Positions 1-8,725 of a DNA stretch of 64,000 nt are shown piece by piece; the first letter of the stretch is position 1, and every line of letters starts with the position of its first letter. The stretch is from a virus. The position numbers and the translations under genes were made by a program. The stretch lies in IMG/VR virus record IMGVR_UViG_3300045303_000152, positions 45,753 to 109,752 of that record, one strand, 5' to 3'. The notes below the pieces were generated by a model. The model saw only the letters and a list, made by a program, of their open reading frames with translations, ran no database searches and had not been told where the DNA came from.

Positions 1-363
1 CTCGGCTTTTGCGCGCTGCTGCTGCGGGGTTTGCTACCAGCATCGCCAGTGCCCATCGTGGCCGCGTGCGAGGCATGGTCGGCCGCTAGTGCGGTCGGGC
101 AATAGCACTCACGAGCTAGAGCACCAACGTCGCCCCATTGCTTACCGTCACACGCGCGCACCGTCGCTGCACCGTGACGCGGGCATGGCTACCGGCGCCC
201 GTAACCCCTAGCACCAACAAACCCCAAACTTGCGAAACCCATGTTTCGCCTTCAATGCTCGGCACGCGCGCACCGTCGCCACAGCACGAGCATTGCGGCC
301 GATACCATCGGGCATGATTGAACTAATCAGCATGCAAACCAACATCGACGGGGGTTTTACACT

Positions 364-615
364 ATGACGCGAATTGATCGGTACAAGCACAATCGCAACG
401 TTGCCGAGCAATCGGCAACACTCACGGTCGGCTCAATTGTGCGCATCACTAGCGAGCACAATTTTTACAACGGTCGGCTTGCAGTCATCATCGGGCACGT
501 TCAATTCGCAATGAGCGAGCTTGATTGCTATTGGGTGCGTATCACTGATACGCAAGTCACTTGCCTTGAACGGGCAAACGAACTGCGCTTGATTGATCGT
601 CAGCACTCAAACTAA
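364..615 (+). CDS. hypothetical leader-region protein (possible SH3/KOW-like fold)
   Basis: 83-aa ORF preceded by GGGGGTT RBS; 'VGSIVRI...YNGRLAVI...YWVRI' pattern. Confidence 0.6.
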   Translation: MTRIDRYKHNRNVAEQSATLTVGSIVRITSEHNFYNGRLAVIIGHVQFAMSELDCYWVRITDTQVTCLERANELRLIDRQHSN

Positions 616-628
616 GGGGTTTACACTG

Positions 629-1048
629 ATGGTTAAACGCCCATTCGACGGCATCAACGTTGATGCCTTGCAAGCTTGGCTCGATAACTTCGAGCGAGCG
701 CACCCGACGACTAGCGTTAAGCCGGCCTTGCCCACTAAGGCGCAAACGTTTGCCGAGCTTGATCGACTCGCAACACCAACAACCCTTGCGACCGTGAGCA
801 TTCGCACGCGCAAGGGTTATCGACCGCTGAAGGGTTACAGCTACCCATTCGACAGTACACCGAATGATAGCGTCGTGCATACGCTGGTGCATTGTTGGTT
901 CATTGATTACGTCGGCCCCGACAAGCCCGCGCGCTATGGCAATGTCGAAATTTCGGCCGACGAAACGGCGACTTTGCTTGCATGGGTAGCCGAGTGGCGC
1001 ATTGCGCGTCGTCGCCCCATCAAACGCGTGGCTAACTGCTATCGCTAA
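629..1048 (+). CDS. hypothetical protein
   Basis: ATG 629 after GGGGTTT RBS at 616. Confidence 0.65.
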   Translation: MVKRPFDGINVDALQAWLDNFERAHPTTSVKPALPTKAQTFAELDRLATPTTLATVSIRTRKGYRPLKGYSYPFDSTPNDSVVHTLVHCWFIDYVGPDKPARYGNVEISADETATLLAWVAEWRIARRRPIKRVANCYR

Positions 1049-1168
1049 CCTTGCCTCGCCTCACTTGCCTGCGATCACTCGCGGGCTTGTGGGCCGATGC
1101 AATCGCATCGGTTGCCGTTTCGGCTTAGGCCCACGGCGAAAACACTGCACACTGAGGGGTTTACGATC

Positions 1169-1519
1169 ATGGCTCGTTCGATCAAGCATGCCAAGGCCAA
1201 GGGCGCGACCGTCACCAAGGCCAATGGCAAGGCCAAGTCGGCCAAGTCGCGCAAGGGCGCCAAGTCGCGCAAGGGCGCCAAGTCGCGCGTTGTCGCTCGC
1301 GAGTACCAGCCCAAGCCCGGTACCGGGCTCGAGTTCACCGACGACACGCGCATCACTGTGCTAGTGCGCGAAAACCCGAAGCGTGGCAAATCGGCCAAGC
1401 GCTTCGCAGGGTACCTCACCAAAAAGCCGAAAACCGTCGCGGCCGCGATTGCCGCCGGCCTCACCCGCGCCGACATTCGCTGGGATGCCGGCAAGGGTTT
1501 CATCAAGCTGGGCAAGTAA
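1169..1519 (+). CDS. basic Lys/Ala-rich protein with C-terminal 'NPKR...D-W-D' domain; probable DNA-binding protein
   Basis: AKSRKG repeats; C-terminal domain shared with 32760..33395; GGGGTTT RBS at 1156. Confidence 0.75.
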   Translation: MARSIKHAKAKGATVTKANGKAKSAKSRKGAKSRKGAKSRVVAREYQPKPGTGLEFTDDTRITVLVRENPKRGKSAKRFAGYLTKKPKTVAAAIAAGLTRADIRWDAGKGFIKLGK

Positions 1520-1575
1520 GCTCGGCTAGTCGCGTGGTAGCGTAGCGCGTCAAACATCAGCCCACAAACTGCAAC

Positions 1576-1627
1576 GCCCACGCGCACACGGTTGCCAAGC
1601 TGGCGATTGTGTGGCGTGGGCTTTTTT
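1576..1627 (+). terminator. intrinsic terminator
   Basis: GCCCACGC...GCGTGGGC stem followed by TTTTTT downstream of the 1519 stop. Confidence 0.7.
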
Positions 1628-1754
1628 GTTTGTACACTACCAATCATCATGGGGGTTCACATGCTCGACAAGCTTTGCGCGTGGGCATACCGGCTGCCGT
1701 TTCGTTTGTGCGAGCCGGCTTACCTGCGAGCCGACTACTGGCGCGAGGTGCATC

Positions 1755-1949
1755 ATGCATCGCGGCATACATAAGCTAATTCACCAATGGGTTGCTCGGC
1801 ACAACGTTTGGGCAATCATAGCGTTTTGTGTACTGATGATTTACGCACCTCGCGTGCTGCAAGTCGCGTGGCCGTTCATTGGCCAGCTAGCTTGCGCGAC
1901 AATCGTAGCCTGCGCGGTCGCGGCAATCGTCGCACGCTTCACACGTTGA
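1755..1949 (+). CDS. small membrane protein
   Basis: Two hydrophobic segments; overlaps the short ORF 1661..1774. Confidence 0.55.
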   Translation: MHRGIHKLIHQWVARHNVWAIIAFCVLMIYAPRVLQVAWPFIGQLACATIVACAVAAIVARFTR

Positions 1950-2164
1950 ACGTTTCGCCTCACGGGCTCGCACGATGCGAGCTTGTGGGCCGACACGTGG
2001 CGCAATCATGTGTCGGGCTTGTTGCCGCGCGCCAAGTACGGCGCAACGCCTGATGAGGTTAGCCGGGTTCAACCCGTTACCCGCTAAACCTCATTGGCCG
2101 TTGCACTGAGCGGCGGGCGCGCTGGCGATTGTCAGCGTGCAAACTAAACTCAATGGGGGTTCAT

Positions 2165-2347
2165 GTGCGATACGCAATTGTTGACTTGCGCACCGGGGAA
2201 ACCATGCGCGTTTGCGTCAGCATGCTCGCAGCGTTGCGTGAGGTGCGGCGCTTCAATGACCACGCGGCACAATGGCACGGCGCCTTGTCGCGCTACGCGA
2301 TTGTGCCGACTTATGACGCGGCGAACCTTTGCGGGTTCGAACTGTGA
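2165..2347 (+). CDS. hypothetical protein
   Basis: GTG after GGGGGTT RBS at 2155. Confidence 0.55.
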   Translation: MRYAIVDLRTGETMRVCVSMLAALREVRRFNDHAAQWHGALSRYAIVPTYDAANLCGFEL

Positions 2348-2446
2348 CGCCTGACAAGCTGCGAGCCTCGCACGTTCGCAGCTTGTCGGCCGCTACAGGC
2401 TAGCGGCGCCTCGCAATCGTGCGAGGTGCAATCGACGGGGGTTCAC

Positions 2447-2674
2447 ATGATGCAATCGCATAGCGTCACTCAGTTGCGCCACGCCATGACTCACGGCCAC
2501 TATCGCCGCATGCGCGCGGGTGACCTGTTGACGGGCTTGGTGCTCGGCATGGCACTCGGCATGGCACTCGGCACAATCATCACGCTCGCATGCCTGCGAC
2601 TTGATGAACTGACGCACAGCAGCGCCCGCGCGGTCGTGAGCGAGCGCACGTGCATCGAGGCGATGTTACGCTAA
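2447..2674 (+). CDS. small membrane protein
   Basis: GGGGGTTCAC-ATG; hydrophobic GMAL repeat segment. Confidence 0.55.
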   Translation: MMQSHSVTQLRHAMTHGHYRRMRAGDLLTGLVLGMALGMALGTIITLACLRLDELTHSSARAVVSERTCIEAMLR

Positions 2675-2688
2675 CCCGCTGCTGCCTG

Positions 2689-2712
2689 CTGCTACCCTCG
2701 CGAGGGTAGCAG
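2689..2712. repeat. perfect 24-bp palindrome CTGCTACCCTCGCGAGGGTAGCAG
   Basis: Read directly. Confidence 0.9.
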
Positions 2713-3136
2713 TGGCCAGCAACGGCAGTTGTATCCGCAACACCGTTGCTTGTCGCACGCAAGCCGAGTTGTATATCAAAGTAGTTCATGTTGGAATTGC
2801 AACTTGTTGGTGTGTCAGCGGTCGCGGTCGCGAGGCTCGCGAGGGTAGCTGGCCACGGGCTTGCGAGGCGCGATGCCGCATATGGTCACAATGGGGCCTA
2901 GCGCGGTCGCTGGCTCGCATCGTGCGAGGTGCGGCACTGCCCTAGCCGCGCGCGGTCGCTGGCCACGGGCGACGCTGCTAGGGGGCTTGCGTGCGTTGCG
3001 TGACGTGCGGTCGCTGGCCAGCTCGGCAGCTTGCCCAGCTCGGGGCCGACCGTGGCAGAGTTGTATAGTCAACAGAAGTCGAGTTTCCTCAACCTGAGGT
3101 TTCAATGCACATACATCTTCGCCTTGACTGTACATC

Positions 3137-3206
3137 TGAACCGCGTTCATCTTGTAGCTACATTCTGAACCGCGTTCATCTTGCATATGCATCTGATCAG
3201 CGTTCA
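3137..3206. repeat. array of TGAACCGCGTTCA units (two exact, one degenerate), 28-29 bp period
   Basis: 3137-3149, 3166-3178, 3194-3206; spacers contain palindromes TGTAGCTACA and TGCATATGCA. Confidence 0.85.
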
Positions 3207-3672
3207 GTTGCATGTCGAACGCAGGCAGGCAGGCGGCGGCTCCTTGTAATCGGCCTCGGTCGCCTCGGTCGCGCCGAAGTCCAGCAAATCTGAGATTTGT
3301 CTTGGGAAAATCTTAAATCTGAAGCTCGAAGCTTTTTGCCTCGGTCGCTTTTTCAACAATTCAATTCGAAACTTTCACAAACGATCCTTATGACGCCGCC
3401 CCACGCGCGGGCGCGCGCTGCCATGTTGTTGACGATTTGCTCGGCGATGCTGGGCAACTCCTTAGCAACAGATGCAGCTTTTGCTATAAGCTCAACGCTG
3501 AGCGATAGCACTAGCCTTGGGCTAGATCTACAGCATTGTTGCAAATCGTACATCGTATGATCGGCATGCGAGGTTCGAAAAACGGTTTTTCAATTTCGAT
3601 TTGGATTTTCCAAGTTCAAAATTTCCAAGTGCCAGTGAGGAAGCAACCAGTGCAACAAGTGAGGAGCGTGCT

Positions 3673-6571: not shown

Positions 6572-6778
6572 ATGAGCGAGTCTGAAGCAGTTGCGTGGGT
6601 AGCACTGGGCTGGTGCTACTTCTGGGGAGCCATAGTTTCATTTGTACTGGTCTATATGCTTCGTGCTCCTGATCCAACAATAAATAGGTGGATTGTGCTG
6701 GTAACTTTCTCATGGCCAGTAACAATGCCTTGGATGATCGTTGATGCACTCGCCAACATGGTGAAGGACAAGAAATGA
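6572..6778 (+). CDS. small membrane protein (paralog of 7978..8232)
   Basis: ALGWxYFWG...WPV motif. Confidence 0.65.
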   Translation: MSESEAVAWVALGWCYFWGAIVSFVLVYMLRAPDPTINRWIVLVTFSWPVTMPWMIVDALANMVKDKK

Positions 6779-7740
6779 AAGCGCGCACATTCGACAAGGC
6801 CGATGTGTACGAGCGCATAACTGCTCAGATTATTAAGGACGTTGAGGCTGGGACGATACCCTGGCTGATACCCTGGTCACATTCTAAAGCCACTCAGGCT
6901 CGAGATTTGACCTTGCAAGACGTGTGGCCGGCTAACGCAATCACCGGCCACCTGTACAACGGCGCAAACGTGTTTCAATGCTGGATGCATCAGTCAAGGC
7001 TGAAGGCAGAAGGGCCACCGCTGTTCTTAACCTTCAAGCAAGCGAAGGCAGCCGGCGGCTACGTGCGCAAAGGAGAGCAGAGCATCATCGTCATCGGCTT
7101 CAACAGTGGCTTGAAGAAAGTCGAGCAGGACGATGGTACGACCAAAACCAAAAAGACTTTCTATGCGTTCGGCCACTTCGTATTTCACATCAGCCAATGT
7201 GAGAATGTGAAGCTGCCAAAGCGCAAGCCCATAGAGCGACCCGTGGGCCTCGACGATGACAAGGCATGGCAGGCGTTCATCAAAGCTACCGGAGCAGACA
7301 TTCGCCACGGTGGCACGAGTGCTCACTACAAGCCCATCGCAGACTACATACAAATGCCGACGGCCAAGGCGTTCAAGACTAAGGATGATTACAAGGCTGT
7401 CGAGTTGCACGAGTTGACACACTGGACAAGCCACAAGACTAGGTGCGACAGGCCAATCATGCACATGTTCCAAAGCGAGGGCTACGCAAAGGAGGAGCTG
7501 ATTGCCGAGCTGGGCAGTGCATTTCTATGTGCCAAGCTGGGCGTCGTGCAAAAGACTGTGCGTCACGCCGACTATGTTGGCGATTGGCTGAAAGTGCTCA
7601 AGAACGACAAGCGCGCCATCGTGCGCGCTGCGTCGCAGGCAATGAAGGCCACAACCTTCATTGAGACGCTGGTAGGTGATGCGTTGAAACCAAAAGTGAA
7701 GCGCAAGCGTTTGAAACCATCGAAAGGAAAAAGGCGATGA
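6775..7740 (+). CDS. ardC: ArdC-family antirestriction / ssDNA-binding protein with zincin-like domain
   Basis: 'YERITAQII...PWLIPW', 'YNGAN', 'LTFKQA...VRKGE', HELTH metal motif, 'YAKEELIAELGSAFL'. Confidence 0.9.
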   Translation: MKARTFDKADVYERITAQIIKDVEAGTIPWLIPWSHSKATQARDLTLQDVWPANAITGHLYNGANVFQCWMHQSRLKAEGPPLFLTFKQAKAAGGYVRKGEQSIIVIGFNSGLKKVEQDDGTTKTKKTFYAFGHFVFHISQCENVKLPKRKPIERPVGLDDDKAWQAFIKATGADIRHGGTSAHYKPIADYIQMPTAKAFKTKDDYKAVELHELTHWTSHKTRCDRPIMHMFQSEGYAKEELIAELGSAFLCAKLGVVQKTVRHADYVGDWLKVLKNDKRAIVRAASQAMKATTFIETLVGDALKPKVKRKRLKPSKGKRR

Positions 7741-8232: not shown

Positions 8233-8725
8233 GAGTGTTCAGGCGCCTGTCAGATGATGGGCATGCTTCTGTATTCAAGTCAAGGGTAAGCGCCGGCATG
8301 ATCGTACTGGAAATTGCCTATGCGCATGGCTTGGCCAGAATGATCACAACCTTATCCAAGGAGGAGGCCAAGCGTTACGCAACGTGGTTACTAAGCAAAA
8401 CGGAGTGAGCTAATGACTGGGGGTCACATGACGTTCATTGAGGAATACCTAGGCTGGGAGATATACCTCGATATGCCAGCGAAGATGTACTACGCAATAG
8501 ATCCTAGTAGCGGCACTCGCTACGGGCCTAGCCGCAGTCGAGCCGACTTGAAACTCTATATCAACAGAGTAAAAAGTAGCTTTAGCCTGTAACAATTAAC
8601 ATTCAAAGAAAGGAGAACTGACCATGCCGCAACTTGCGAGAGTTACCGTGCTGATGGGCCTAGTCACGGCATTTGCCATCGTGCTGGCTATCAGCTTGAT
8701 CGTGATATTCGGGTAGTCTGCAAAA

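Follow-up and report, generated by a model that had tools for sequence, protein, structure and literature searches.

An early leader region of an uncultured phage was analyzed in a window of 64,000 nucleotides, which corresponds to bases 45,753-109,752 of a 109,752-bp IMG/VR viral contig (IMGVR_UViG_3300045303_000152); positions are given relative to the first base of this window. Six of the seven small genes of the leader have a GGGG(G)U site instead of GGAGG ahead of the start codon, and the 3.2-kb zone that carries them is nearly free of the trinucleotides RGA (GGA and AGA) and TCY (TCC and TCT). These G-runs are probably ordinary Shine-Dalgarno (SD) sites that are spelled under a trinucleotide constraint. 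The case is apparently undescribed and represents an SD variant, not a new mechanism.

The purged zone contains 5 RGA/TCY sites versus approximately 120 expected, and the longest gap between sites is 1,365 nucleotides versus a genome mean spacing of 26 nucleotides. Against expectations of 25 TCC, 23 TCT, 14 AGA, and 24.5 GGA, the first 2.7 kb has one AGA, two GGA, and neither TCC nor TCT. A scan over strand-symmetric trinucleotides demonstrated that the zone is unique within the 109,752-bp record. No comparable zone for any strand-symmetric trinucleotide was detected in 80 unrelated viral loci, which came from an ArdC-based search for relatives and were used solely as negative controls. Four distant relatives (DNA polymerase identity, 34-58%), two of which are fragments and may miss the region, lack a purged zone as well as a cluster of the motif. 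The sequence-only reading of this DNA had proposed a ban on GGA. The ban is real, but its restriction to GGA does not hold, since AGA, TCC, and TCT are purged as well. The loss of TCY, and of both TCC and TCT, from the same strand as RGA points to DNA, beyond mRNA alone. In known phages, thymidine hypermodification is sequence-context-specific (PMC8989533).

The leader of a related phage, IMGVR_UViG_3300005544_000022 (L003), which shows 81-94% nucleotide identity to the window and was used for comparison, is under the same ban. Since random placement of the 303 substitutions between the two would give 43 ± 6 sites and L003 actually has 11, the ban is, judged from these two sequences, under ongoing maintenance. 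The purge also extends to the proteins: dipeptides that force RGA ([KEQMW][DE]) occur once in the leader proteins compared with 6.3 expected (P = 0.008), and the sole case is the Trp-Asp pair that is invariant in the gene C family, with GGA at 1483. Both in-gene GGA sites (1483 and 2197) are conserved in L003; the former is forced by the Trp-Asp pair, whereas the latter (Gly-Glu, GGG GAA) could be avoided by a synonymous codon. On the plus strand the edges of the zone are asymmetric, RGA being missing from -739 to 3057 and TCY only from -151 to 3086 (the upstream part was read as L001:760-1500). The flank of L003 is alike, RGA-free from 720 and TCY-free from 1118. This asymmetry hints at a sense-strand component of the ban. 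The non-coding flanks of the purged zone are rich in TCY.

As the sequence-only reading had reported, all six G-runs were found, at 349-353, 616-619, 1156-1159, 1651-1655, 2155-2159, and 2437-2441, each directly followed by TT. Genes were called by a crude caller based on open reading frames (ORFs) and codon scores, with starts picked by SD energy, and the region from -18 to -4 before each start was compared between the leader (n = 7) and the other genes (n = 134) by the Fisher test. Poly-G without GGA was present in 6 of the 7 leader genes and in 11 of the 134 others (P = 8e-6). GGAG or AGGA, which had been proposed as the prevailing spelling beyond the leader, was indeed seen in 78 of the 134 other genes and in none of the leader genes. 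Any RGA was present in 104 of the 134 and again in none of the 7 (P = 5e-5), and GGA occurred in this region in 66% of the non-leader genes. The motif GGGGTTYA has nine matches in the window, compared with 2.25 ± 1.67 in shuffled sequences, and five of the nine fall within the first 2.5 kb. In L003 the pattern is replicated, with the motif at 6 of 7 leader genes versus 1 of 28 downstream genes; the leader genes bearing it include one for a 59-amino-acid protein that is missing from the window. Thus, poly-G sites do not reach the same frequency in the remaining genome, and the enrichment in the leader stands. Exclusivity does not, since about 8% of the other genes (e.g., at 8428, 25025, 30725, and 31767) share the spelling.

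The coordinates of the start sites and genes are listed in Table 1. The distance from the G-run to the start codon is 5 to 10 nucleotides, which fits SD geometry. The leader starts are credible on comparison with L003, because the orthologous proteins share the same ATG start, conservation does not extend upstream of it, and most substitutions fall at third codon positions (first/second/third: 6/4/25 in gene C, 3/1/11 in gene E, and 4/6/15 in gene F). The upstream candidates TTG 593, ATG 1097, TTG 1592, and GTG 2426 were rejected on the grounds that their extensions are unconserved or frame-shifted in L003; that from ATG 1097, which would extend the N-terminus of gene C, is unconserved. Gene D starts at 1661, since L003 has lost the in-frame ATG at 1649 and carries a frameshift there. 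For gene E, the frame of GTG 2165 shows 2 amino-acid changes relative to L003 and that of ATG 2163 more than 12; the latter frame was ruled out by these changes together with the substitutions by codon position. The start of gene D' lies within the 3' end of gene D, and the two are translationally coupled. The start sites at 1649-1663 and 2153-2167 both read ATGGGGGTTCAYRTG, in which an in-frame ATG overlaps the G-run. In L003, the first copy has ATA and one extra T, so that there is no start, and the second is identical in both phages.

Table 1. Start sites and genes of the leader and extent of the purged zone.
Feature	Site	Position of site or zone	Strand	Start codon	Gene	Product	Remarks
Gene A	GGGGG	349..353	+	ATG 364	364-615	83 amino acids	spacer TTTTACACT; -9.3 kcal/mol to the anti-SD
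Gene B	AAGGGG	614..619	+	ATG 629	629-1048	139 amino acids	-7.7 kcal/mol; adjoins the stop of gene A
Gene C	GAGGGG	1154..1159	+	ATG 1169	1169-1519	116 amino acids	basic; ENPKRG...RWD domain
Gene D	GGGGG	1651..1655	+	ATG 1661	1661-1774	37 amino acids	spacer TTCAC
Gene D'	GAGGTG	1746..1751	+	ATG 1755	1755-1949	64 amino acids	membrane-like; sole leader gene without a G-run
Gene E	GGGGG	2155..2159	+	GTG 2165	2165-2347	60 amino acids	spacer TTCAT
Gene F	GGGGG	2437..2441	+	ATG 2447	2447-2674	75 amino acids	membrane-like; spacer TTCAC; -9.3 kcal/mol
Zone nearly without RGA/TCY		1..3057	.				begins 151 nucleotides before the window; in-window sites at 118, 1483, 2197, 2734, and 2793

Predicted pairing energies provide a reason for the choice of G-runs. 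Of 3,120 hexamers that contain neither RGA nor TCY, GGGGGT is the best binder of the anti-SD sequence (-9.0 kcal/mol). It ranks seventh of all hexamers, and the six better ones, headed by GGAGGT (-9.9 kcal/mol), all contain GGA. The predicted duplex energies of the seven leader sites with ACCUCCUUA range from -7.2 to -9.3 kcal/mol, and the mean predicted SD energy is -8.5 kcal/mol in the leader versus -6.9 kcal/mol elsewhere. Each leader G-run site differs by one A-to-G transition from a common site of the genome (GGAGGT, AAGGAG, or GAGGAG). The G-run is kept in all five orthologous pairs between the window and L003, while spacers and upstream bases vary; in gene A, for example, GGGGG is retained and the spacer TTTTACACT is replaced by TTTCAC. 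GGAG-type sites are found at 13 gene C homologues from other viral contigs with a normal RGA/TCY density (35-85 per kb). In E. coli, poly(G) SD sequences drive strong initiation via G.U wobble, and GGGGG is found in 73 of 4,566 native sites (PMC7263185).

The following scheme would account for these observations. Selection at the nucleic-acid level would keep the 3.2-kb early leader nearly free of RGA and TCY on both strands, and the usual sites of the genome (GGAGG, AAGGAG, and AGGAG), all of which contain GGA, would be forbidden there. They would be replaced by the single-transition derivatives GGGGG(U), AAGGGG, and GAGGGG, which should still pair with the CCUCC core at the 3' end of 16S rRNA, one G.U wobble taking the place of an A-U pair. 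As the strongest binder under the ban, GGGGGU would retain the strength of initiation. The re-spelling of the SD sequence to satisfy the ban, proposed in the sequence-only reading, gains support from the ranking of the hexamers, the single transitions, the retained strength, the GGAG sites of the homologues, the conservation of the G-runs, and the E. coli precedent; the proposed pairing of GGGGGU with the anti-SD through G-U wobble agrees with the predicted energies and the same precedent. From these features we infer that the G-runs pair with the ribosome and function in initiation. Because poly-G is the strongest spelling allowed under the ban, it would be a side effect of the ban and no new kind of signal.

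Several points weigh against this interpretation. The CCUCC tail was assumed because the other genes are rich in GGAG sites, and the 16S rRNA of the host may differ. GAGG-type Watson-Crick sites are also permitted by the ban, and the gene starting at 1755 has one, so G-runs are not strictly forced. The SD-energy term in the picking of non-leader starts may inflate all SD frequencies. The in-frame ATG at 2153 is a possible start of gene E and would place the G-run within the coding sequence. Finally, all 7 leader gene families carry a TT(T)CAC or TTTAC tail behind the G-run, compared with 2 of 11 poly-G sites elsewhere. The latter are mostly GGGGGTA, as the pairing energy predicts. Because pairing favors GGGGGTA or GGGGGTG and the ban permits alternatives, the TT(T)CAC tail is explained neither by rRNA pairing nor by the ban. 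It may have been inherited with a shuffled cassette, or it may be a second signal.

Inheritance of the tail would mean that the six sites are alike by common descent and cassette shuffling, in which mobile cassettes of a hairpin and a start region had small genes inserted behind them, the G-run still being an SD site. This account is conceivable and, on the present evidence, rather doubtful. It is consistent with the mosaic structure of the leader. Gene B has no counterpart in L003, and L003 carries the extra 59-amino-acid gene (L003 3119-3298), which is preceded by a G-run site and flanked by copies of a repeated hairpin (repeat families D11 and D18). Furthermore, the blocks of homology break at 339, which is 10 nucleotides before the first G-run, and at 1051 and 1962, and further joints, at 339/456 and 588/1955, occur in contigs from other soil metagenomes. 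However, the breakpoints are mostly located at hairpin elements rather than at start sites, and the spacers of orthologues have diverged while the G-run and TT have stayed, which suggests selection over mere inheritance.

The mosaic structure is also apparent between window 340-1050 and L003 1686-2072, where the L003 homologue of gene A differs at the N-terminus and is longer at the C-terminus. An additional joint in the soil-metagenome contigs lies at 1723/1750. Between the leader cassettes, at 1053-1130, 1957-2030, 2342-2430, and 2676-2725, lie repeated elements of several hairpins that have a GCTTGTGGGCCGA / GCTTGTCGGCCG core in common. Because two copies flank the extra L003 gene, these elements look like recombination points of cassette gain and loss.

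If the tail is a second signal, GGGG(G)TT(T)CAC together with a CA-rich upstream part could be a control signal specific to this gene class, added to or replacing a plain SD site. A translational repressor or activator could use it as an operator, or it could allow escape from an RNA agent that reads GGA or GGAG, for example an endoribonuclease like RegB or a repressor like CsrA. In early T4 messages, GGAG within SD sites is cleaved by RegB (PMC1702504). The TT after the G-run, for which rRNA pairing gives no explanation, argues for such a signal, as do the likeness reaching 20 to 35 nucleotides upstream in some pairs (repeat families D2, D14, and D16) and the greater extent of the RGA-free stretch over the TCY-free stretch on the plus strand in both phages. 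Nevertheless, the purge of TCY from the same strand is not explained by an agent acting on sense RNA, the spacers vary in length as well as in sequence between orthologues, and the G-run spelling is also used by 11 ordinary genes. RNA folding of the six start regions revealed no significant or conserved structure (z-scores, -1.8 to +1.0). RegB (PF10715) had no match in the genome, which is a weak negative, as the control genomes were also unmatched. A class-specific control signal is hence unlikely. The suggestion that this gene class has a distinct and targetable translation signal was not borne out: 11 ordinary genes share the spelling, the predicted rRNA tail is the same, and no class-specific factor was found.

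A stronger form of this idea, which we regard as improbable, is that GGGG(G)UU(U)CAC is a privileged signal: leader mRNAs lacking GGA would evade a GGA-reading agent (a RegB-like nuclease, a toxin RNase, or a CsrA-type repressor), and the UU(U)CAC tail would recruit a factor. If this were true, the leader genes would be translated while all GGAG-led host and phage messages are shut down.

T7-type promoters start with GGG, and it is very improbable that the G-runs are no translation signals at all, with true starts elsewhere or with transcription starts of a phage RNA polymerase at these positions: in-frame ATGs do overlap two of the G-runs (1649 and 2153) and upstream GTG or ATG codons are available for genes C and F, but the upstream extensions are unconserved or frame-shifted in L003 and the third-position substitution patterns match the frames of Table 1. 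The role as start of a phage RNA polymerase was rejected, no such polymerase being found among the large ORFs of the genome.

The reading of the G-runs as SD sites under a constraint can be compared with known systems. In E. coli, as predicted for the leader, G-tracts pair with the CU-rich anti-SD by G.U wobble (Kuo et al., Genome Res 2020, PMC7263185). There, poly-G sites are scattered or synthetic, whereas in the phage leader they make up nearly the whole class (6/7 versus 8% elsewhere), and the apparent reason for the spelling, unlike in E. coli, is a trinucleotide ban on DNA. Motif-free regions that are injected first have been described for the first-step-transfer (FST) DNA of T5 (bioRxiv 10.1101/866236), and the leading region of Murciavirus is free of Type I restriction-modification (R-M) motifs (PMC12455610). 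The leader resembles them as a single early, variable region of small genes that lacks a motif common in the remaining genome, and, as in the T5 FST type, the motif depletion is confined to one early region. It differs in that the ban concerns a degenerate 3-mer, RGA/TCY, which is far shorter than any R-M site; because the motif is so short, the ban conflicts with both the SD consensus and codon pairs. Moreover, first entry is known for T5 FST DNA, whereas the leader is known from assembled contigs alone, in a mid-contig position. With T4 RegB (PMC1702504), the leader has in common that what becomes of one temporal class of phage mRNAs depends on how their SD sites are spelled. A RegB homologue was not found here (a weak negative, as noted above), and the leader purge also affects AGA, TCC, and TCT on the same strand.

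At the end of the leader, positions 2700-3600 form a 0.9-kb non-coding region that contains GGTCGCTGGCCA-type repeats (2900-3020), a 29-nucleotide tandem repeat TCTGAACCGCGTTCATCTTG (3135-3192), and palindromes. By analogy, this large non-coding repeat region behind the leader recalls, by its position, the injection stop region that follows the FST DNA of T5. Hyperplastic early regions of the T4 type contain mobile regulatory cassettes composed of a promoter, a stem-loop, and a ribosome-binding site. The phage leader is similar in having repeated units of hairpin and start site between small early ORFs, with gene content that varies among close relatives. Unlike the T4-type cassettes, those of the leader have no promoter consensus that could be found, their breakpoints lie mostly at hairpins, and the units obey the ban.

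If the constraint reading is correct, selection on a DNA triplet can override the most conserved translation signal of bacteria, and the phage adopts the thermodynamically best spelling that is permitted. The re-spelled start sites would then be independent evidence for a strong and real purge, which rewrites start sites, codon choice, and dipeptide content. The leader also offers a naturally occurring collection of G.U-wobble SD sites in which the effect of poly-G sites could be studied in vivo. A gene finder that relies solely on AG-rich motifs for scoring will place starts wrongly in regions of this kind.

The public sequencing runs listed as containing DNA of this phage are soil and rhizosphere metagenomes, with no RNA run among them, and the DNA polymerases of cultured phages are at best approximately 31% identical to its DNA polymerase. 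In the assembled contigs, in which the ends of the molecule are not visible, the leader occupies a mid-contig position some 7 kb away from the terminase gene. The minus strand upstream of it encodes structural proteins, the portal, and the terminase, and the plus strand downstream carries replication genes and an ArdC-type anti-restriction gene. The latter (PF08401 and PF18818; phrog_7245) is located at 6775-7740, 3.7 kb past the leader, and shows 99% identity in L003 and at most 56% to anything else found. No tRNA genes were found in the window. In blastn searches, the leader had no matches among phage records, and no PHROG or Pfam family was matched by the leader proteins.

About 1.3 kb of non-coding DNA precedes the leader, and 0.9 kb of non-coding repeat DNA lies behind it. 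The upstream stretch, which is 1.3 kb long and reaches into the start of the window (L001:520-1860) between a minus-strand gene and the leader, contains a number of TTGAC boxes, together with a pair of similar hairpins (145-170 and 257-282) that have CACGCGCGCACCGTCGC in their loops. Matches to a σ70-like promoter in the upstream non-coding DNA showed a weak excess (4 versus 1.1 expected), and scans of the leader itself for σ70 promoters and terminators gave nothing beyond chance. No relatives of gene B were found in the viral contigs searched, and its look-alikes in the Atlas were discounted, having too few features in common with it. The family of gene C is unnamed and has no Pfam model; it comprises 426 representatives at E <= 0.001. 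Its members have a basic Lys/Ala-rich N-terminal tail and a C-terminal domain, ENPKRG...F..Y...TV...G..R.D.RWD...G.I, which is often terminal in proteins of 100-250 amino acids. After gene C, at 1564-1633, there is an intrinsic-terminator-like hairpin with a T-run (GCGTGGGC TTTTTTGTTTGT), which escaped the simple terminator scan owing to its long loop and which stands approximately 30 nucleotides before the next G-run start site.

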